Positions 911 through 55,849 of a stretch of 64,000 bases of DNA are shown here, one piece after another. The DNA comes from Escherichia coli (GTDB taxonomy: Bacteria > Pseudomonadota > Gammaproteobacteria > Enterobacterales > Enterobacteriaceae). The stretch lies in NCBI RefSeq assembly GCF_002854065.1, contig NZ_CP024147.1. The stretch is one strand, 5' to 3'. The notes below the pieces were generated by a model. It worked only from the letters and a program-made list of their open reading frames with translations, was not told where the DNA came from and did not search any database. Each line of letters begins with the position of its first letter. Position 1 is the first letter of the stretch. The position numbers were made by a program, and so were the translations under genes.

Positions 911-3052
911 ATGAACATCATTGCCATTATGGGACCGCATGGCGTCTTTTATAAAGATGAGCCCATCAAAGAACTGGAGTCGGCGCTGGTGGCGCAAGGC
1001 TTTCAGATTATCTGGCCACAAAACAGCGTTGATTTGCTGAAATTTATCGAACATAACCCTCGAATTTGCGGCGTGATTTTTGACTGGGATGAGTACAGTC
1101 TCGATTTATGTAGCGATATCAATCAGCTTAATGAATATCTCCCGCTTTATGCCTTCATCAACACCCACTCGACGATGGATGTCAGCGTGCAGGATATGCG
1201 GATGGCGCTCTGGTTTTTTGAATATGCGCTGGGGCAGGCGGAAGATATCGCCATTCGTATGCGTCAGTACACCGACGAATATCTTGATAACATTACCCCA
1301 CCGTTCACGAAAGCCTTGTTTACCTACGTCAAAGAGCGGAAGTACACCTTTTGTACGCCGGGTCATATGGGCGGCACCGCATATCAAAAAAGCCCGGTTG
1401 GCTGTCTGTTTTATGATTTTTTCGGCGGGAATACCCTTAAGGCTGATGTCTCTATTTCGGTCACCGAGCTTGGTTCGTTGCTCGACCACACCGGGCCACA
1501 CCTGGAAGCGGAAGAGTACATCGCGCGGACTTTTGGCGCGGAACAGAGTTATATCGTTACCAACGGAACATCGACGTCGAACAAAATTGTGGGTATGTAC
1601 GCCGCGCCATCCGGCAGCACGCTGTTGATCGACCGCAATTGTCATAAATCGCTGGCGCATCTGTTGATGATGAACGATGTAGTGCCAGTCTGGCTGAAAC
1701 CGACGCGTAATGCGTTGGGGATTCTTGGTGGGATCCCGCGCCGTGAATTTACTCGCGACAGCATCGAAGAGAAAGTCGCTGCTACCACGCAAGCACAATG
1801 GCCGGTTCATGCGGTGATCACCAACTCCACCTATGATGGCTTGCTCTACAACACCGACTGGATCAAACAGACGCTGGATGTCCCGTCGATTCACTTCGAT
1901 TCTGCCTGGGTGCCGTACACCCATTTTCATCCGATCTACCAGGGTAAAAGTGGTATGAGCGGCGAGCGTGTTGCGGGAAAAGTGATCTTCGAAACGCAAT
2001 CTACCCACAAAATGCTGGCGGCGTTATCGCAGGCTTCGCTGATCCACATTAAAGGCGAGTATGACGAAGAGGCGTTTAACGAAGCCTTTATGATGCATAC
2101 CACCACCTCGCCCAGTTATCCCATTGTTGCTTCGGTTGAGACGGCGGCGGCGATGCTGCGTGGTAATCCGGGCAAACGGCTGATTAACCGTTCAGTAGAA
2201 CGAGCTCTGCATTTTCGCAAAGAGGTCCAGCGGCTGCGGGAAGAGTCTGACGGTTGGTTTTTCGATATCTGGCAACCGCCGCAGGTGGATGAAGCCGAAT
2301 GCTGGCCCGTTGCGCCTGGCGAAGAGTGGCACGGATTTAACGATGCGGATGCCGATCATATGTTTCTCGATCCGGTTAAAGTCACTATTTTGACACCGGG
2401 GATGGACGAACAGGGCAATATGAGCGAGGAGGGGATCCCGGCGGCGCTGGTGGCAAAATTCCTCGACGAACGTGGGATCGTAGTAGAGAAAACCGGCCCT
2501 TATAACCTGCTGTTTCTCTTTAGTATTGGTATCGATAAAACCAAAGCAATGGGATTATTGCGTGGGTTGACGGAATTTAAACGCTCTTACGATCTCAACC
2601 TGCGGATCAAAAATATGCTACCCGATCTCTATGCTGAAGATCCCGATTTCTACCGCAATATGCGTATTCAGGATCTGGCGCAAGGGATCCATAAGCTGAT
2701 TCGTAAACACGATCTTCCCGGTTTGATGTTGCGGGCATTCGATACTTTGCCGGAGATGATCATGACGCCACATCAGGCATGGCAGAGACAGATTAAAGGT
2801 GAAGTAGAAACCATTGCGCTGGAACAACTGGTCGGTAGAGTATCGGCAAATATGATCCTGCCTTATCCACCGGGCGTACCGCTGTTGATGCCTGGAGAAA
2901 TGCTGACCAAAGAGAGCCGCACAGTACTCGATTTTCTACTGATGCTTTGTTCCGTAGGGCAACATTACCCCGGTTTTGAAACGGATATTCACGGTGCGAA
3001 ACAGGACGAAGACGGCGTTTACCGCGTACGAGTCCTAAAAATGGCGGGATAA
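911..3052 (+). CDS. ldcC: constitutive lysine decarboxylase
   Basis: 713-aa ORF with Orn/Lys/Arg decarboxylase fold (…STHKMLAALSQASLIH…); RBS aggagga upstream; position after accA. Confidence 0.93.
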   Translation: MNIIAIMGPHGVFYKDEPIKELESALVAQGFQIIWPQNSVDLLKFIEHNPRICGVIFDWDEYSLDLCSDINQLNEYLPLYAFINTHSTMDVSVQDMRMALWFFEYALGQAEDIAIRMRQYTDEYLDNITPPFTKALFTYVKERKYTFCTPGHMGGTAYQKSPVGCLFYDFFGGNTLKADVSISVTELGSLLDHTGPHLEAEEYIARTFGAEQSYIVTNGTSTSNKIVGMYAAPSGSTLLIDRNCHKSLAHLLMMNDVVPVWLKPTRNALGILGGIPRREFTRDSIEEKVAATTQAQWPVHAVITNSTYDGLLYNTDWIKQTLDVPSIHFDSAWVPYTHFHPIYQGKSGMSGERVAGKVIFETQSTHKMLAALSQASLIHIKGEYDEEAFNEAFMMHTTTSPSYPIVASVETAAAMLRGNPGKRLINRSVERALHFRKEVQRLREESDGWFFDIWQPPQVDEAECWPVAPGEEWHGFNDADADHMFLDPVKVTILTPGMDEQGNMSEEGIPAALVAKFLDERGIVVEKTGPYNLLFLFSIGIDKTKAMGLLRGLTEFKRSYDLNLRIKNMLPDLYAEDPDFYRNMRIQDLAQGIHKLIRKHDLPGLMLRAFDTLPEMIMTPHQAWQRQIKGEVETIALEQLVGRVSANMILPYPPGVPLLMPGEMLTKESRTVLDFLLMLCSVGQHYPGFETDIHGAKQDEDGVYRVRVLKMAG

Positions 3053-35219: not shown

Positions 35220-36125
35220 CTATATTTCCAGACATCTGTTATCACTTAACCCATTACAAGCCCGCTGCCGCAGATATTCCCGTGGCGAGCGATAACCCAG
35301 CGCACTATGCGGATGCCATTCGTTATAATGCTCGAACGCCTCTGCAAGGTTCTTTGCTGCCGTTAACCCGTCTGGTTTGGGCATGATACTGATGTAGTCA
35401 CGCTTTATCGTTTTCACGAAGCTCTCTGCTATTCCGTTACTCTCCGGACTCCGCACCGCCGTGTTCTTCGGTTCAAGTCCCAACATCCGGGCGAACTGGC
35501 GTGTTTCATTAGCCCGGTAGCATGAACCATTATCCGTCAGCCACTCCACTGGAGACGACGGAAGATCGTTGCCGAAGCGGCGTTCCACCGCTCCCAGCAT
35601 GACGTCCTGTACTGTTTCACTGTTGAAGCCGCCGGTAGTGACCGCCCAGTGCAGTGCCTCACGATCACAGCAGTCCAGCGCGAACGTGACACGCAGTCTC
35701 TCTCCGTTATCACAGCAGAACTCGAACCCGTCAGAGCACCATCGCTGATTGCTTTCTTTCACGGCCACTCTGCCTGTATGTGCCCGTTTCGATGGCGGTA
35801 CAGCAGGTTTTCGCTCAAGCAACAGCGCATTCTGGCGCATGATCCGGTAAACACGTTTGGCATTGATCGCAGGCATACCATCAAGTTCTGCCTGTCTGCG
35901 AAGCAGCGCCCATACCCGACGATAACCATACGTGGGCAGCTCTCCGATAACATGGTGTATACGGAGAAGCACATCCGTATCATCAGTGTGACGACTGCGG
36001 CGGCCATCCATCCAGTCATCGGTTCGTCTGAGAATGACGTGCAACTGCGCACGCGACACCCGGAGACAACGGCTGACTAAGCTTACTCCCCATCCCCGGG
36101 CAATAAGGGCGCGTGCGCTATCCAC
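35220..36125 (-). CDS. insD: IS2 transposase OrfB (InsD)
   Basis: 301-aa DDE transposase ORF inside IS2. Confidence 0.92.
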
Positions 36126-36448: not shown

Positions 36449-36539
36449 CTGTTCTCCAATGACTAGTCTAAAAACTAGTATTAAGACTATCACTTATTTA
36501 AGTGATATTGGTTGTCTGGAGATTCAGGGGGCCAGTCTA

Positions 36540-39390
36540 CGAACTGACGCATTGGTTGCATCAGTTAATACAACAACCAGAGAATGACATTCACAATGTG
36601 CTTCGACATTATCAAATAACATCTGCTGATGTTGAGAAGGCGTTAATTCAGCAATTGAATATATTGCCTGCCGGAGCGAGTGTAATTAACGATTTTTCCC
36701 ATCATATCGATCTTTCTGTTGAAAAAGCCTGGATGTTGGCAAGTATCCGCTTTGGCGATCAAAAAATTCGTAGTGGATGGTTATTACTTGCCTGGTTAAC
36801 CACGCCAGAATTGTGTCGGGTGTTAAAAAATATTTGTGCGCCATTGGCAGAGCTACCGGTAGATGAACTATTAGATATTCTTCCGTCTTTAATCACTTCA
36901 TCTCCTGAATTAACAGAAATGCCTTATGACGGCTCGGATTTAAATTCTGCAGTACCGGGGGAAGCTAGCCAGGTCTTTGCCGGCGAATCAACTGGAAGCA
37001 AATCCGCGCTGGCGAAATACTGTCAGGACATGACTGCGCTGGCCCGTGAAGGCAATATCGATCCGGTCACCGGTCGCGAACACGAGATCCGTACTATGAC
37101 GGATATTCTGCTGCGCCGTCGCCAGAACAACCCGCTACTGACCGGCGAAGCGGGAGTCGGGAAAACGGCAGTGGTGGAAGGATTCGCGCTGGCGATTGCC
37201 GGGGGGGAAGTACCGCCTTCACTGCGTAACGTGCGGTTGCTTTCACTGGATGTTGGCGCGCTGCTGGCTGGGGCGTCCATGAAGGGTGAGTTTGAATCTC
37301 GCCTGAAAGCGTTGCTGGAAGAGGCCGCGCACTCGCCGCAGCCGGTAATCCTTTTTGTTGATGAAGTTCACACGCTGGTGGGCGCTGGTGGGCGCTGGTG
37401 GTACATCCGGCACCGTCGCATCACGGGCAGTGTGCAGTCCTGGCAGTATACGCCGCGCGGGCTGCTGGCGCTCCATACGGATGAAGAGAAACGGGAGACG
37501 CGCTGGCAGTACACCCCGGAAGGGCTGGTTGCCAGTCTGAGCAACGGCAATGGGGCTCAGTACCGGTTCAGCTACGACGGCGACGGACGGCTGACGGGAG
37601 AACAGCGCCCGGACGGTCTGATACGGATGTTTGCGCTGAATGCGGGCGGGTTCCCGGTCATCATCCAGACGCAGGGCACAGAAGGAGGGATGCGTAATGA
37701 GCGACAGGAGCGTGATGCGCTGGGCCGCCTGCTGCGCAGTGACACGCAGCACAGTACACGGACCTTCAGCTACAACCGTCTTGACCAGATAACGGAAGTG
37801 ACGCTCACCCCCACGGAAGAAGGGGAACGGCTGCACCACATGCAGGCGGACAGGGTGCGCTTTGCGTATGACCGCAGCGGCTGGCTGACGGCAGAGCACA
37901 GCGTGCACGGCAGCATAAAGTACCGGCGCGATGCGCTGGGCAATCCCACCGATATCACCTTACCGGACGGGCAGCATCTCAGCCATCTTTACTACGGCAG
38001 CGGGCATCTGCTCCAGACGGCACTGGACGGTATCACGGTCAGCGAATATGAGCGTGACAGTCTGCACCGTCAGGTGATACGCACGCAGGGGAAACTGGCG
38101 ACGTTCAGCGGCTACAACGCCGACAACCGGTTAAGCTGGCAGCGCAGCCTGCCAGGTGGCAGCCAGAATCCACAGCAGGCCGGTACTCCCCCGGCGCAGA
38201 ACGACAGCGTGACGGCGCGGGACTATATCTGGAACGCAGACGGTGAAGTCGGCGGCATCAATGACAAACTGCGCGGTTGCCTGGTGTTCAGCTATGACCG
38301 CAGCGGCTGGCTGACCAGCCGCACGGGGCAGATGTATGACCATGACCATTATTATTACGATAAAGCGGGCAACCTGCTGACGGATGAGTATCAGGGAGCG
38401 GTGCTGGACAACCGCCTGCCGGGCTACGGGCGTGACCGTTACCGCTATAACGAATGGGGCGAACTGACAGAGCGCAGGGACCAGCAGCTGGAGTGGAACG
38501 CGCAGGGCCAGTTAACGCGGGTCATCAGCAGCAACAGCGAGACGCGGTATCAGTACGATGCGCTGGGCAGGCGCATCATCAAGGCGACCAGCAATCTCCA
38601 TACCGACCGGGGAGAACGAAGCCGGACAACGTTTGTGTGGGAAGGGTTCCGGCTGTTGCAGGAGACAACGTGGCAGGGAAAGCGGACATACCTGTACGAC
38701 GCGGAACAGCCGTACACGCCGGTGGCGGCCATCACCGGGCGCGGAGAGAGTCAAAAAATCTGGTATTACCATACGGACCTGACGGGCACGGTACAGGAGG
38801 TGACCGCGCCGGACGGGACGCTGGTGTGGGCGGGCTACCAGGCGGGATTTGGTGAAAACCGGGGCGACATCAGCAACAGCGGGGCGTACTTTGAACAGCC
38901 GCTGCGGCTGCCGGGGCAGTATTATGATGAAGAGACGGGGCTGCACTATAATCTGTTCAGATATTATGCGCCGGAGTGCGGGAGGTTCATAAGTCAGGAT
39001 CCGATAGGGCTGGCGGGTGGAATAAACCTCTATGCTTATGCTCCTAACCCAATTAGCTGGATCGATCCCTTTGGACTGGATTTACACCATATAATACAGC
39101 AAGAAATTTGGAAGGAGTTCAAAACAGATCTTAAAAAAGTCACCGGATATGTACAAAATGTCACGAAAAAGGCAGCCGACATGACAAACCTAATCGATCT
39201 GGATAAACCTTTTCATGGTAATCACCCAGCTTATAGTCAATATGTAAGAGAAGCAATCGAAGACCTGAAGGCTAATAATAACTTAACGTTGAAAGGATTA
39301 AGAGATTTACAAGATGATCTTAAAAAGAAAATAGGTGAAGCTCAAAAGTCTGGCAAAAATCTAAATGATTATTTTAAATCGGGGTGCTGA
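36540..39390 (+). CDS. chimeric ORF: 5'-truncated ClpV/TssH N-domain and AAA+ D1 Walker A region fused in frame to an Rhs YD-repeat core with a C-terminal toxin domain
   Basis: Residues …[13 protein letters not shown]…[13 protein letters not shown] are ClpV-like, then YD-repeat sequence (…[13 protein letters not shown]…), then the DPFGL junction and a roughly 110-aa C-terminal tip; no native start codon, as the track start lies inside the IS2 inverted repeat. Confidence 0.75.
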
Positions 39391-41322: not shown

Positions 41323-42735
<1,413 letters not shown>

Positions 42736-42973
42736 TGACACTCTATAAGAGTTTCAGCGAAGCGATCGCAGTGATCGGCCAGGTCTGTGAAATCGGTGGC
42801 AGAACTGAAAGGAATGGACAGTAAATCATAATCAGGGGTGAGGATTGTAGCCATAAGGCAACCTCCGATAAGTAGGCGTTAAAACCACCACCGAAGAGAC
42901 CAATCTTACGGGTGGTGGAATCGGGCGGAGTTGGTCTTACCGGCCTTATCGGATACCGGCGCATCTTTCGATG

Positions 42974-43811
42974 CTGGCAGGGAAAGCGGACATACCTGTA
43001 CGACGCGGAACAGCCGTACACGCCGGTGGCGGCCATCACGGGGCGCGGAGAGAGCCAGAAAATCTGGTATTACCACACGGACCTGACGGGCACGGTACAC
43101 GAGGTAACCGCGCCGGACGGGACGCTGGTGTGGGCGGGCTACCAGGCGGGATTTGGTGAAAACCGGGGCGACATCAGCAACAGCGGGGCGTACTTTGAGC
43201 AGCCGCTGCGGCTGCCGGGGCAGTATTATGATGAAGATACGGGGCTGCACTATAATCTGTTCAGATATTATGCGCCGGAGTGCGGGCGGTTTATCAGTCA
43301 GGACCCGATAGGGCTGGCGGGAGGAATAAACCTATATGCTTATGCGCCTAATCCGCTAAGTTATATTGATCCTCTTGGGCTTTGTAAATTAAGGGGAAGC
43401 GATGGGCGCTACAGAAGTGCACAGAATATTCAGGAAGAAATAGGCGGCCTACCCAATTTTGCAGGAAAAACTCCAGGAGAAATACGACAAACTTTGCGTA
43501 ATCGAGGTTATTCGTCGGTACAAGCGTATAGTGGAGGAGAGGTCTGGACAAAAGCATTACCTGACGGAAATACTGTTGCAGTGAGGCTTGATCCGGCAAA
43601 TCCTCGCTCACCTTCACATTATGCTGATGCTGTACCTCATGCTCATATTGAAACAGTTCCAACATCCAGTGTTTCTAATGGGAATTATCGCCCGCGAGAC
43701 GTGACTGGCAGGCATACTGCCACTGGTGGGGTTTCTGATCGAGGAACAAATCCGAATCATAACGCTGATGTTTACATTCCAATGTCTCCGGGACGATTCC
43801 CATATGATTAA
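42974..43811 (+). CDS. orphan Rhs C-terminal fragment (conserved core end plus alternative toxin tip); no upstream rhs body
   Basis: About 400 bp that are nearly identical to 38672-39070 by eye (core end through the DPxGL junction), followed by a different roughly 140-aa C-terminal domain. Confidence 0.7.
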
Positions 43812-43822
43812 TGTGAGGTTTT

Positions 43823-44086
43823 ATGAATATCCGAAATCAATATAATGAAGCCTTAAATAAATTAGAAGTTGATGTTAATGATGGTTTGAGAGATTTAATA
43901 AACATATATTGTGTGGCTATTGATTCTTTTGAAAATGATATCGTTGACTCGATTGCTTTATACGTGATTGATATGGGAAATAAAGATACTTGTCGATATC
44001 TACAAGAAGTCTTATCAGAGAATGAAGATCCTTATTTAGTAAAAGAATTTAATGCATGGATAAAAGAAATTAAGAAAAAATATTAA
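43823..44086 (+). CDS. putative immunity protein for the orphan Rhs toxin tip
   Basis: 87-aa AT-rich ORF 11 bp downstream of the toxin-tip stop. Confidence 0.55.
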   Translation: MNIRNQYNEALNKLEVDVNDGLRDLINIYCVAIDSFENDIVDSIALYVIDMGNKDTCRYLQEVLSENEDPYLVKEFNAWIKEIKKKY

Positions 44087-44091
44087 AATAA

Positions 44092-44133
44092 AAGCCGGGA
44101 AGGTTATAAAATCTTCCCGGCTTTTTATTTTTA
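44092..44133. terminator. bidirectional rho-independent terminator
   Basis: agccgggaag…cttcccggct stem flanked by A- and T-runs, between convergent ORFs. Confidence 0.75.
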
Positions 44134-44364
44134 ATTCTCGTTCAGTACACTAAACATCCCGTCCCGCATCCCCTTAACCGCCTGTTTAACCTGATAAAGT
44201 TCCCTGCGCAGTTCCTGTACTTCGTTGTTATCGGCAAGCAGGATCAGGCAGCCTTCCGAGATCTTCACAGTAACGCCCGTGCCGATCGAAAATTCCGCTT
44301 CTCTCAGCCATTTGGCGCTGATTTTGATCACCGGCGTGTCGCTGCTGTTGGGCAGATATCCCAC
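44131..44364 (-). CDS. SymE-like (AbrB-fold) toxin homolog
   Basis: 77-aa ORF …ISAKWLREAEFSIGTGVTVKISEGCLILL… resembles the SymE/SpoVT-AbrB swapped-hairpin family. Confidence 0.5.
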   Translation of the reverse strand: MGYLPNSSDTPVIKISAKWLREAEFSIGTGVTVKISEGCLILLADNNEVQELRRELYQVKQAVKGMRDGMFSVLNEN

Positions 44365-44477
44365 GGTACAACGGCGTTGTGTTTTGGAAATGGTGACTTC
44401 TGGCGTAATATCATGTTTAAGTTAGGGGCTTTCGTAGTCATACCCCGACTCTCCCCGGCCCTAAACACAACCCCCAC

Positions 44478-45257
44478 TCACCACAACCTAAACTCATCCG
44501 CATCCTGCCATGCCGGAAACTTTTCTCTATATTCCCGCAATGCCATCATCGACAGCTCCGCATCAATGCGCGTTGCCTGATGCGCGTCGGCAGTAGCGAT
44601 AATCTCGCCTTGTGGATTAATCACCCGGCTGTCACCGCGATAATGGCAGCCGTTGCCATCGCTGCCGACGCGATTGCATCCCGCCACATACGCCTGATTC
44701 TCAATCGCGCGGGCCGTCAGCAATGCCTGCCAGTGCAGAGAGCGCGGAGCAGGCCAGTTGGCGACGTACAGGGCGAGGTCATAATCGTTGAGATTGCGCG
44801 ACCACACAGGAAAACGTAAGTCGTAGCACACCAGCGGCAAAATACGCCAGCCGCGCCATTCCACAATCACTCGCGCATTGCCCGCTTTATAATGCAGATG
44901 CTCATCAGCCATTCGGAACAGATGACGCTTATCATAAAAATGTACCGTGCCGCCCGGCTCAACCAGCAAAAAGCGGTTAACTGAACCAGACTCCGTTTGT
45001 AATGCAACACTGCCTGCAATCAGCGCATTGCACTGCTGCGCTTTAGCTGTCATCCAGTTCACTACGTCATCTTGCGCTAGCGACGAAGCTGCCGCTTCCA
45101 TGGCAAAGCCGCTGGTAAACATCTCCGGTAGAACGATCACATCGCGCCCGGTAATACCTTCCAGTTGACGATCAAAATGACGCAGGTTGGCAGGACCATC
45201 CATCCACACCAGTGGTTGCTGCAAAAGCGTAATCTTCAAACCAGGCACGGTGTACAA
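44478..45257 (-). CDS. yafV: 2-oxoglutaramate amidase (C-N hydrolase) YafV
   Basis: Nitrilase-superfamily ORF; true start probably a few codons inside the track ORF. Confidence 0.9.
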   Translation of the reverse strand: MYTVPGLKITLLQQPLVWMDGPANLRHFDRQLEGITGRDVIVLPEMFTSGFAMEAAASSLAQDDVVNWMTAKAQQCNALIAGSVALQTESGSVNRFLLVEPGGTVHFYDKRHLFRMADEHLHYKAGNARVIVEWRGWRILPLVCYDLRFPVWSRNLNDYDLALYVANWPAPRSLHWQALLTARAIENQAYVAGCNRVGSDGNGCHYRGDSRVINPQGEIIATADAHQATRIDAELSMMALREYREKFPAWQDADEFRLW

Positions 45258-45401: not shown

Positions 45402-45875
45402 ATGGGCAGGATAAGCTCGGGAGGAATGATGTTTAAGGCAATAACGACAGTCGCCGCTCTGGTCATCGCCACCAGTGCAATGGCGCAGGATGATTTAACC
45501 ATTAGTAGCCTTGCAAAGGGCGAAACCACCAAAGCTGCGTTTAATCAGATGGTGCAAGGGCATAAGCTGCCTGCATGGGTGATGAAAGGCGGTACTTATA
45601 CTCCCGCACAAACCGTAACGTTGGGAGATGAGACGTATCAGGTGATGAGCGCGTGCAAACCGCATGACTGTGGCTCGCAACGTATCGCTGTGATGTGGTC
45701 CGAGAAATCTAATCAGATGACGGGGCTGTTCTCGACTATTGATGAGAAAACGTCGCAAGAGAAACTCACCTGGTTGAATGTGAACGATGCGCTTTCGATT
45801 GATGGTAAAACGGTGCTGTTCGCGGCGTTGACCGGCAGCCTGGAAAACCATCCGGATGGCTTTAATTTTAAATAA
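45402..45875 (+). CDS. ivy: inhibitor of vertebrate lysozyme
   Basis: 157-aa ORF with signal peptide and CKPHDC motif. Confidence 0.93.
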   Translation: MGRISSGGMMFKAITTVAALVIATSAMAQDDLTISSLAKGETTKAAFNQMVQGHKLPAWVMKGGTYTPAQTVTLGDETYQVMSACKPHDCGSQRIAVMWSEKSNQMTGLFSTIDEKTSQEKLTWLNVNDALSIDGKTVLFAALTGSLENHPDGFNFK

Positions 45876-45917: not shown

Positions 45918-48362
45918 TTACGCGGCTTCAACTTTCCGCACTTTCTCCGTCAACTTTACCGGCTTCGTCGCCAGCTCTTCCGGATCAAAGTCATCAACGT
46001 TAATACTGCGCAGACGGCTTTCTTCCGCTTTCACCAAAATGGCGGCTTCATCTTTATCAATCAGCCCCTTCGCCAGCGCGTTGTGCGCCAGTTCATCCAG
46101 ACGGGTAAATGGCAGATTTTTACCCAGCTCTTTACAGATCCGCTGATGAATCGGGTCGGCGGCAATCACATCCACCAACGCCTCTTCCAGTAAACCAACC
46201 GGATTATGCTCGCTCGGCGTCAGGTACTGACCGCGACCAATACGTGAGCGAGTGGCGTTCGGCACTTGTAAAATCTTCGCCACTTTATGATCCAGCTTGT
46301 CAGACGGTGCCAGATAATGACGTCCGGTCGGGAAGATCACTACATTCAGCAGCCCGGCAACCACGCGGTTCGGGAAGTTTTGCAGTAAATCGTCCATCGC
46401 CTGTTCAGCCTTATACAGCGCATCCTGTACGCCCCAGTGCACCAGCGGCAGATCGGCTTCATTACGGCCTTCGTCGTCATAACGCTTCAGAACGGCGGAG
46501 GCGAGGTAGAGCTGGCTTAAAATATCCCCCAGACGTGCCGAGATACGCTCACGACGTTTCAGGCTGCCGCCCAGCACTGCCATCGAGACATCAGAAAGCA
46601 GGGCGAGGTTGGCGCTCAGGCGGTTCAGGTGCTGATAGTAGCGTTTAGTGGCATCGCCGGTTGGCGTGCTGCTGGTTAAACCGCGCGTCAGGCCCAGCCA
46701 GAAGCTGCGAACTTTGTTGCTACCGACGTGACCGATATGTTTGAACAACAGTTTATCGAACGCGTTGACGTCATTGTTCTTCGCCGCTTCCATCTCTTCC
46801 AGCACGTACGGATGGCAACGAATCGCTCCTTGTCCGAAGATCATCATGCTGCGGGTCAGAATGTTAGCCCCTTCAACGGTGATGGCAATCGGTGCGCCCT
46901 GGTAAGCACGCGCCAGGAAGTTGCTTTGCCCGAGCATAATGCCTTTACCGCCGGTAATATCCATCGCATCAATAATCGACTGCTGCCCGCGGTGGGTACA
47001 GTGATACTTAACGATAGCCGACAGCACGGCAGGTTTTTCGCCGAGCATAATGCCGTAGGTAATCAGCGATGCCGCAGCATCCATTACATAAGCGTTCCCG
47101 GCAATACGCGCCAGCGGCTCTTCAATCCCTTCCATCTTACCGATAGAGATTTTGAACTGACGGCGAATGTGAGCATACGCGCCGGTTGCCAGCGCTACCG
47201 ATTTCACGCCGCCGGTTGAGTTGGAAGGCAGTGTGATGCCGCGGCCTACCGAGAGGCACTCCACCAGCATCCGCCAGCCTTGCCCGGCCATTTTCGGCCC
47301 GCCGATGATGTAATCGATCGGCACGAAGACATCTTTACCGCGCGTCGGTCCGTTCTGGAACGGTACGTTCAGCGGGAAGTGGCGACGACCAATTTCCACG
47401 CCCGGCGTGGTGGTCGGGATCAGCGCACAGGTAATGCCTAAATCTTCTGCACCGCCGAGTAATTTTTCCGGGTCGGAGAGTTTAAACGCCAGACCCAGCA
47501 CGGTCGCAATCGGTGCCAGCGTAATGTAGCGTTTGTTCCAGGTCAGACGCATCCCCAGCACCTGCTGGCCCTGCCATTCGCCCATGCAGACAATCCCGGT
47601 GTCCGGAATCGCGCCCGCATCGGAACCCGCTTCCGGGCTGGTTAGTGCAAAGCAAGGGATTTCCTGACCACGCGCCAGACGCGGCAGATAGTGATCTTTC
47701 TGCTCGTCAGTGCCGTAATGTTGCAGCAGCTCGCCCGGGCCTAATGAGTTCGGCACGCCGACGGTAATCGCCAGGATCCCGCTCACGCCGGAGAGTTTTT
47801 GCAGCACGCGAGACTGGGCATAAGCCGAGAACTCCAGCCCGCCGTACTCTTTTTTGATGATCATCGCGAAGAAACGATGCTCTTTAAGGTACGCCCACAA
47901 CTCCGGCGGCAGATCCGCCAGCTCATGAGTAATCTGGAAATCATTCGCCATCCGGCAGGCTTCTTCTACCGGGCCGTCGAGAAACGCTTGCTCTTCAGCG
48001 GTCAGGCGCGGCTGCGGATAGTTATGCAGCTTTTTCCAGTCCGGCTTGCCCTGGAACAAGTCGCCCTCCCACCAGGTGGTGCCCGCATCAATCGCTTCTT
48101 TCTCAGTGCGCGACATCGGCGGCATCACCTTACGGAAACCGCGAAATACCGGCGCGGAAATCATCGACTTACGCATAGGCGCAAAGTTAAATGGCACGAG
48201 GATAATGGCCAGAGGCACCAGTACCCACGCCGACCACAGACCAGCAACGCCGAGGGCGGCTGTCCAGGCGAGCAAAATCAGACTGCTGATAAATAAGCTC
48301 ACGCGGTGATAGAACAACGCGCCGAGCAGGACAACCGTAGCGAGAATACTCAAAATCATCAT
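45918..48362 (-). CDS. fadE: acyl-CoA dehydrogenase
   Basis: Start placed at [14 protein letters not shown]… (814 aa); the track ORF is extended upstream. Confidence 0.93.
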
Positions 48363-48601
48363 AACGAAAAGCCCCTTACTTGTAGGAGGTCTGACCACTT
48401 GTGATGATATGGTTGTAGTGGATGTAAAAACATTTAGCAATGCGTTTACAATATAATTACAACAAAGCTCACATTGTTGCTGTTTTTATCCGCACTTCAG
48501 GTCAAAAAGTCCTGGTCATAGCACCTGCCCGTACTTCTCGCTTTTGGCGGTATCCGGTACACTGCATTTTGTCTATTACATTTATGCTGAAGGATATCCT
48601 C

Positions 48602-51561: not shown

Positions 51562-51770
51562 TGGGGTATCTCCTGTGCTGTATATTTATTCAGCTTGAAT
51601 TGTAGCTCAAATGAGCAACAGCGACAATCTATGAGTAATTTAATAAACGGATGTTTTTACATAATTCACTGAAATATATTTATTAATTTTATAATAATGG
51701 TTTATTAAGTTTGTTCAGGTACGGGCCGGGATACACTGTAACATCAATGCATGACCAGCCATTATTGAAT

Positions 51771-55831: not shown

Positions 55832-55849
55832 ACTGTATACTTTACCAGT
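55832..55849 (+). promoter_or_regulatory. LexA (SOS) box in dinB promoter
   Basis: CTGTATACTTTACCAG matches the CTGT-N8-ACAG LexA consensus. Confidence 0.85.

Follow-up and report, generated by a model that had tools for sequence, protein, structure and literature searches.

A decayed symE-like gene at the end of an Rhs array in Escherichia coli and the SymR-like antisense RNA of its intact relatives

Does the short SymE-like open reading frame that lies between an Rhs array and yafV in some strains of Escherichia coli encode a toxin governed by an antisense RNA, as K-12 symE is, or is it what remains of such a gene? The frame is found in a 64,000-nucleotide stretch of E. coli DNA (NCBI RefSeq assembly GCF_002854065.1, contig NZ_CP024147.1), referred to here as the window. 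It had been noticed in the bare sequence as a SymE-like toxin gene, possibly SOS-induced and repressed by an antisense RNA overlapping its 5′ end. Our analysis favors a different answer, to which we give a probability of roughly three in four: the window gene is a decayed copy of a SymE-family gene, from a subfamily whose members close off Rhs toxin/immunity cassettes of the Enterobacterales on the distal side, in convergent orientation. It belongs to the SymE family, is truncated, has lost the SymR-like RNA and has no LexA box; in its relatives both the RNA and the 5′ end of the gene are intact.

The symE-like frame and its setting

The features on which the argument depends are, in order of position:

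42912–43811, plus strand: orphan Rhs fragment, consisting of the core end and the C-terminal toxin region (Pfam RHS; TIGR03696 at 90 bits)
43823–44086, plus strand: 87-aa ORF that occupies the immunity position in the orphan Rhs module
44090–44125, both strands: bidirectional intrinsic terminator, common to the immunity-position ORF and the symE-like gene
44131–44364, minus strand: 77-aa SymE-family ORF with a GTG start, equivalent to codons 21–97 of intact 97-aa relatives
44134–44421, minus strand: full open frame of 96 codons, homologous to codons 3–97 of intact 97-aa SymE-like proteins, e.g. WP_000807559.1
44384–44411, plus strand: relic of a SymR-type antisense promoter in the 5′ coding region (TTGGAA at 44384–44389, a 16-nt spacer, TAATAT at 44406–44411), homologous by position to the K-12 symR −10
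44417–44425: truncation junction, TAA CTT AAA in place of the relatives' ATG GCT GAA
44426–44447, plus strand: 22-nt relic of the right end of ISEc1 (ISAs1 family, H-rpt), matching GGGCTTTCGTAATCTTGCCCTG at 18 of 22 positions
44478–45257, minus strand: yafV (2-oxoglutaramate amidase), with which the backbone genes begin; it lies upstream of the symE-like relic, on the same strand

Homology to the K-12 backbone (the yafV flank) starts at 44426, and the symE-like gene therefore does lie at the boundary of island and backbone, as originally predicted. Beyond yafV come ivy (45402–45875, plus strand) and fadE (45918–48440, minus strand), all three named after the annotation of genomes that are identical over the region. 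To the left of the relic, the orphan Rhs fragment is accompanied by T6SS genes, insertions of the IS3 family and an Rhs gene whose tip is an AHH nuclease; this array is the aspV-linked T6SS/Rhs island, at the position of which K-12 has yafT-ykfM-yafU-yafF instead. The placement of the gene after an orphan Rhs module and behind a shared terminator also proved correct. It is convergent to the orphan Rhs-CT/immunity module with the terminator between them, which is the layout of the distal unit of an Rhs cassette, and the hairpin at 44090–44125 is flanked by an A-tract and a T-tract, making it a bidirectional terminator, with strong predicted folding on the plus strand (−26.9 kcal/mol, z −7.8) and on the minus strand (−23.7 kcal/mol, z −6.6). 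The 87-aa ORF in the immunity position matched no known family in profile searches. Further to the left, in a 962-aa ORF (36502–39390, plus strand), an N-terminal region resembling AAA-ATPases is joined to RHS repeats, an RHS core end and an AHH nuclease tip; the ORF is flanked by two IS3-family transposase genes (35220–36125 and 41323–42536, both minus strand), and its N-terminal fusion looks like the product of a rearrangement.

The SymE-like character of the 77-aa minus-strand ORF was confirmed by Pfam family PF08845 (SymE_toxin), which it matches at 34.6 bits (E 2e-8) against a cut-off of 29; extending the open frame upstream raises the score to 44.1 bits. Against the NCBIfam equivalog NF010128 ("endoribonuclease SymE") the same ORF reaches 36 bits, far below the cut-off of 132, and the relic therefore belongs to the family without being SymE itself. 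An intact 97-aa paralog scores 46.6 bits against this model. The window frame shares 94.7% amino acid identity with its intact relatives over residues 3–97 (tblastn). The intact E. coli relatives have a length of 97 aa and an N-terminus that reads MAEHDITPEVTISKTQRRCTVGY; of 5426 complete E. coli genomes, 190 contain the subfamily, with as many as 8 copies in one genome. The AbrB/MazE-like swapped-hairpin fold is an obligate dimer, and the AlphaFold monomer model of the window protein is of low confidence (mean pLDDT 60, pTM 0.34, residues 1–24 below 50). The relic already carries a PGAP annotation, with the RefSeq label "type I addiction module toxin"; it is a decayed member of an already known family and, as such, an ordinary annotated relic.

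The deletion junction and what it removed

The open frame is closed on its upstream side by a TAA codon at 44422–44424, at the point where homology to the 5′ end of the intact genes is lost. Where the relatives read GAGGTAGTTAATC ATG GCT GAA CAC GAT, the window reads ...GAAAGCCCC TAA CTT AAA CAT GAT, and in the alignment with intact relatives everything beyond the junction is missing: Shine-Dalgarno sequence (SD), 5′UTR, promoter and the body of the SymR-like RNA. The window copy consequently has no start codon and ribosome-binding site of its own, the GAGG of the relatives being absent, and no SD can be read in the 20 nt before the annotated GTG, which corresponds to Val-21 of the ancestral protein. 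In the near-identical strain E. coli PE164, a single G-to-A change (equivalent to window position 44362) turns this GTG into GTA, and the RefSeq/PGAP call there is only 66 aa, a "hypothetical protein"; the annotated GTG start is therefore an ORF-calling artefact. A frameshift pseudogene, made up of the ATG of a 49-aa ORF (44328–44477) and the symE frame, was considered and rejected, as the alignment is that of a deletion junction and not of an indel.

The truncation is probably an old IS-associated deletion, since it ends directly beside the ISEc1 right-end relic, whose sequence, lying between the truncated gene and yafV, folds into a small hairpin. The end of ISEc1 was defined by the point at which other genomic copies cease to match. 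In K-12 and most E. coli, yafF, an ISAs1 remnant, ends at the junction position, and other strains have, at rhsC-ybgA, an ISEc1 end of 34 nt within the SymR-like region. The symE/yafV junction occurs in 11 of the 5426 complete E. coli genomes and does not vary among the six junction copies aligned, although these diverge from one another by up to 6%; a further copy, in strain 18KM2445, has lost its C-terminus too. One rhsC-ybgA-like locus (L009) was examined as a candidate for the orthologous yafV locus with an intact gene and was rejected, there being no yafV homology upstream of it.

The clustering of H-rpt elements at Rhs loci is an old puzzle. ISEc1 right-end relics stand where symE meets the backbone at two Rhs loci, those of yafV and ybgA (window 44426–44447; L009 3945–3978; L081 2899–2932), and in K-12 IS copies occupy these loci in place of symE (L008 3599–3889). 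Such relics may bear on the clustering.

The suggestion that the window copy is induced by the SOS response finds no support in its sites. No LexA box (CTGT-N8-ACAG, up to two mismatches) was found in 44340–44520 by a search that recovered the K-12 control at −93, and 43800–44700 contains no minus-strand promoter-like site, so that there is none upstream of the ORF. At the place where K-12 has its box, the relatives, too, generally have none; a LexA-type site is present elsewhere in four of them, in three of these at about −55, inside the SymR-like stem-loop. LexA-box-like sites are present in the backbone part of the window at 51578–51593 (CTGTATATTTATTCAG) and 55833–55848 (CTGTATACTTTACCAG), which, going by K-12 gene order, we take to be probably the dinJ-yafQ and dinB sites. 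No intrinsic terminator was detected between yafV and the relic (fold z −2.1, no U-tract), and read-through from yafV is for this reason plausible, and the sole plausible source of transcription of the symE-like frame.

From these features we propose that the deletion took all that lay upstream of codon 3, namely start codon, SD, 5′UTR, the gene's own promoter and the whole body of the antisense RNA. Left over would be an open frame devoid of its own translation signals, transcribed at most as the 3′ tail of the yafV mRNA as far as the terminator, together with an orphaned antisense promoter. We infer that the window copy is not expressed as protein.

The alternative that best survives, and that we nevertheless consider unlikely, is a functional, shortened SymE-like DNA-binding protein of 77 aa, initiated at the GTG at 44364 on yafV read-through transcripts and still possessing the C-terminal helix and the greater part of the AbrB/MazE-like domain. 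Such a product would still exceed the Pfam cut-off, transcripts from yafV would run into the ORF without passing a terminator, and weak initiation at a GTG does not require an SD. In its favor, too, the N-terminal ~24 residues are of low confidence in the AlphaFold model, and the N-terminal tail of K-12 SymE has been described as disordered (PMC11894785). However, the 20 residues lost from the window copy (MAEHDITPEVTISKTQRR) are nearly invariant across the subfamily, the Pfam score falls from 44 to 35 bits without the N-terminal residues, no SD precedes the GTG, the GTG itself is lost in PE164, and the copy in 18KM2445 would make a protein lacking its C-terminus as well. The pattern of substitution can be read in two ways. 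The 96-codon frame is open in all six aligned junction copies at nucleotide divergence of up to 6%, with dN/dS of 0.09–0.41 among these copies apart from one pair at 0.89 that has only four differences; these values are above those of intact copies (0.02–0.09). A dN/dS below 1 could mean that the protein is still selected, but it could equally result if intact paralogs had supplied the 3′ part again and again, along with each new cassette.

SymR-like antisense RNA: conserved in relatives, lost in the window copy

The antisense RNA that was predicted to overlap the gene fares differently at the level of the family and at that of the window copy. Among the relatives, the Rfam symR model matched two Salmonella loci at 47–50 bits, both matches being antisense, beginning 6 nt within the CDS and extending over the 5′UTR; its gathering score of 61 misses both of these loci, and in two E. 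coli loci (L007 and L009) it gave no match at E ≤ 0.01. When aligned, 14 such regions from about ten genera have in common a −10 element (TAGAAT, TAATAT, TACAAT or TAAAAT), a sequence complementary to start codon and SD, and a stem-loop at the 3′ end; across the alignment, 13 of 15 predicted pairs are maintained by double (compensatory) changes. A covariance model built from this alignment, which we call R1, gave 31 matches in 30 loci at E ≤ 0.01 (e.g. L073 3930–4006, minus strand; L075 3931–4006, minus strand; L007 2844–2921, plus strand; and 27 further loci), and 29 of the 30 have a match whose start lies 6 nt into the CDS, at codon 2 of the SymE-like gene. The alignment and its covariation identify a structured, SymR-like antisense RNA gene, as predicted by R1, which many Enterobacterales conserve at the 5′ end of their SymE-like genes. 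[quoted passage not shown]

Kawano et al. anticipated SymR-type regulation for SymE genes that have no neighbouring regulator gene (PMC1891008). Both in Salmonella and in E. coli D6, the SymR-like RNA co-occurs with an upstream HTH gene on the same strand and a divergent gene for a DnaG-type primase; the Salmonella loci also have an integrase. As the RNA is present beside an HTH gene, the alternatives posed in 2007, a protein regulator or an sRNA, are not exclusive. The possibility that the 3′ end of ISEc1 is itself homologous to the SymR-like RNAs was explored and abandoned: a profile that included L009 matched K-12 yafF because L009 itself holds the 34-nt ISEc1 end, a profile without L009 gave no match at E ≤ 100, and only a ~20-nt patch of ~80% similarity remains.

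In the window copy, only the putative antisense promoter is left and the RNA body is absent. Of the plus-strand promoter and terminator sought near 44300–44480, the former is represented by the relic at 44384–44411, whose TAATAT is the positional homolog of the K-12 symR −10 (TAGAAT) and of the TAATAT, TAGAAT, TACAAT or TAAAAT of the relatives; an overlapping promoter-like site (44385–44414) was flagged by the promoter scan, and the predicted start (~44419) falls at the deletion junction. No plus-strand terminator was found after it. By nhmmer, the window keeps only the first 38 profile positions (44381–44418), that is, the promoter within codons 3–15, and hence no cis-antisense RNA over a start codon and 5′UTR. 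Rfam symR gave no match in the window at E ≤ 10, with the K-12 control recovered at its known place at 95 bits; R1, run with filters off, found nothing near 44380–44480 (its best score in the window, 17 bits, lies elsewhere) and had no match in any other yafV-junction copy. As a subsidiary reading, the orphaned promoter may now drive antisense transcription into the 3′ end of yafV.

A working type I toxin-antitoxin pair of the SymE/SymR kind, SOS-induced and with its antisense sRNA at ~44330–44470, is very improbable in this copy: the retained promoter homologous to PsymR, the use of a SymR-like RNA by the family as a whole and the overlap of Salmonella IsrA, inversely expressed, with a SymE-like gene (PMC2330248) would favor it, but the RNA body is deleted and its region is matched by no model, the relic promoter leads to no terminator, LexA box and ORF promoter are lacking, the SD and ATG that such an RNA would mask no longer exist, and the ORF is not a SymE equivalog.

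Two other Rfam sRNA families, Ssr1 (RF02627) and isrA (RF01385), match the plus strand of the window, and both matches come with the warning that they are driven by protein-coding homology to symE-like genes. The Ssr1 model takes in all 654 nt of the predicted interval that separates yafV from an Rhs-family gene in Shigella flexneri 301; the mapped 5′ end of the RNA is at model position 131, and the northern band is ~150 nt (Wang 2016, PMC4782007). The match in the window covers 43953–44394 (plus strand), with model positions ~345–654 aligned to 44085–44394 (plus strand), so that the part matched is the terminator plus the antisense strand of the symE-like relic. Three things fall within the model in E. 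coli TB06052: a 106-aa ORF that is annotated, the terminator, and the strand opposite the truncated symE-like gene. A large share of the model thus consists of protein-coding sequence. It also matches L006 at 2131–2785 (plus strand). Ssr1 was rejected as a sign of an antisense sRNA over the symE-like gene, since the position mapped for the RNA is on the upstream side of the terminator (PMC4782007).

The isrA match (44261–44344, plus strand) is sub-threshold, at 28 bits against a cut-off of 51, and arises because the coding sequence is homologous to symE-like genes. In a Salmonella enterica contig the same model scores 122 bits (L073 4072–4200, minus strand), inside and antisense to a 109-aa SymE-like CDS. 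IsrA was reported as a cis-antisense RNA to STM0294.1n, with inverse expression of the two (Padalon-Brauch 2008, PMC2330248). The Rfam match, which is in another Salmonella contig and not in LT2, suggests that STM0294.1n is a SymE-like gene and implies that IsrA, a published island sRNA, would be antisense to a SymE-family gene. With IsrA there is a real precedent for a long antisense transcript running over a SymE-like gene.

Rhs cassettes and comparison with known systems

In a wider survey of 64 symE-like loci, one genome per species, a convergent Rhs core end was found within 2.5 kb in 29 of the 45 loci with at least 46% identity and in none of the 19 more distant ones, and no surveyed locus had an Rhs fragment on the same strand beside the symE-like gene. 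In three loci (L034, L011 and L039), from several genera, Rhs core-end fragments alternate with 5′-truncated symE-like fragments, always convergent; such alternating arrays hold up to four symE pieces and six Rhs pieces in 8 kb. The CT/immunity/symE block of the window (43302–44391) recurs with 95.8% identity over 1091 nt in Entomohabitans teleogrylli (L010 1047–2137). At the rhsC-ybgA locus of E. coli JNE151685 (L081 2274–2876), a full-length Rhs gene is followed by an 87-aa ORF, the same length as that in the window, and an intact SymE gene, and the DNA is 94% identical to window 44050–44417. Unrelated modules have only the terminator and symE block in common (44079–44417). The likeness to Entomohabitans and JNE151685 points to exchange of cassettes between loci and genera.

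In the cited literature, symE genes have been noted in passing in Rhs, T6SS and CDI clusters, without explanation (PMC1891008, PMC3942780, PMC7764402, PMC11278526, PMC8386352). We suggest, tentatively and with distinctly less confidence than we place in the decay of the window gene, that the SymE-like gene, the SymR-like RNA and the terminator form a conserved distal end of mobile Rhs (and CdiA) cassettes, which, paired with the Rhs core, would act as the downstream homology arm for the acquisition of new toxin tips. Displacement would leave 5′-truncated symE genes as scars, of which the window copy would be the last, clipped by ISEc1. The terminator plus symE block would be the part that serves as downstream arm in Rhs-CT/immunity exchange. 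This pattern of SymE/SymR-like units at Rhs ends could help to explain both the exchange of Rhs toxin tips and the clustering of H-rpt (ISEc1) elements, for which the support is circumstantial, and such units are of greater interest than the window copy itself. The latter has very little significance beyond the correction of an over-reading: because it has neither translation signals nor antitoxin RNA, the RefSeq label and the SymR model of regulation do not apply to it.

The known systems closest to the window gene include the orphan Rhs-CT/immunity modules and C-terminal displacement arrays, one of which it closes; in other genera, symE-like genes or their 5′-truncated fragments likewise alternate with Rhs core-end fragments in convergent orientation. 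The intact 97-aa paralogs (WP_000807559.1 of strain D6 and WP_182533178.1 of JNE151685) also stand convergent after an Rhs-CT/immunity module, with a terminator of the same type; they differ from the window copy in keeping the ATG, the SD (GAGG), the 5′UTR and at least part of the SymR-like gene. In D6 the symE-like gene follows an Rhs gene and a small ORF, and, unlike the window, this locus has the upstream HTH gene and the primase gene. The Ssr1 locus of S. flexneri occupies the orthologous place, the interval between an Rhs-family gene and yafV, but where the mapped RNA lies, upstream of the terminator, the window has a different immunity-position ORF. The Salmonella SPI-6-type SymE-like gene with IsrA belongs to the same protein subfamily as the window gene; the difference is that no promoter or terminator of the IsrA type was identified in the window.

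With the K-12 SymE/SymR pair (b4347/b4625, type I toxin-antitoxin), the window gene has in common the Pfam domain, 43% identity over 68 residues and a homologous 5′ coding region that includes the embedded antisense −10, and its intact relatives, like K-12, have a homologous structured SymR-like RNA. The window copy itself, unlike the K-12 pair, is without start codon, SD, 5′UTR, LexA box and SymR body. PMC11894785, citing Thompson 2022, presents K-12 SymE as a DNA-binding, nucleoid-condensing protein and not an RNase, and its RefSeq annotation is that of a nucleoid-associated DNA-binding protein, so that the label "toxin" should be read with caution even for intact members of the family. The genomic settings differ as well, the window gene standing at the end of an Rhs array and K-12 symE in the hsd-mcr restriction-modification island.
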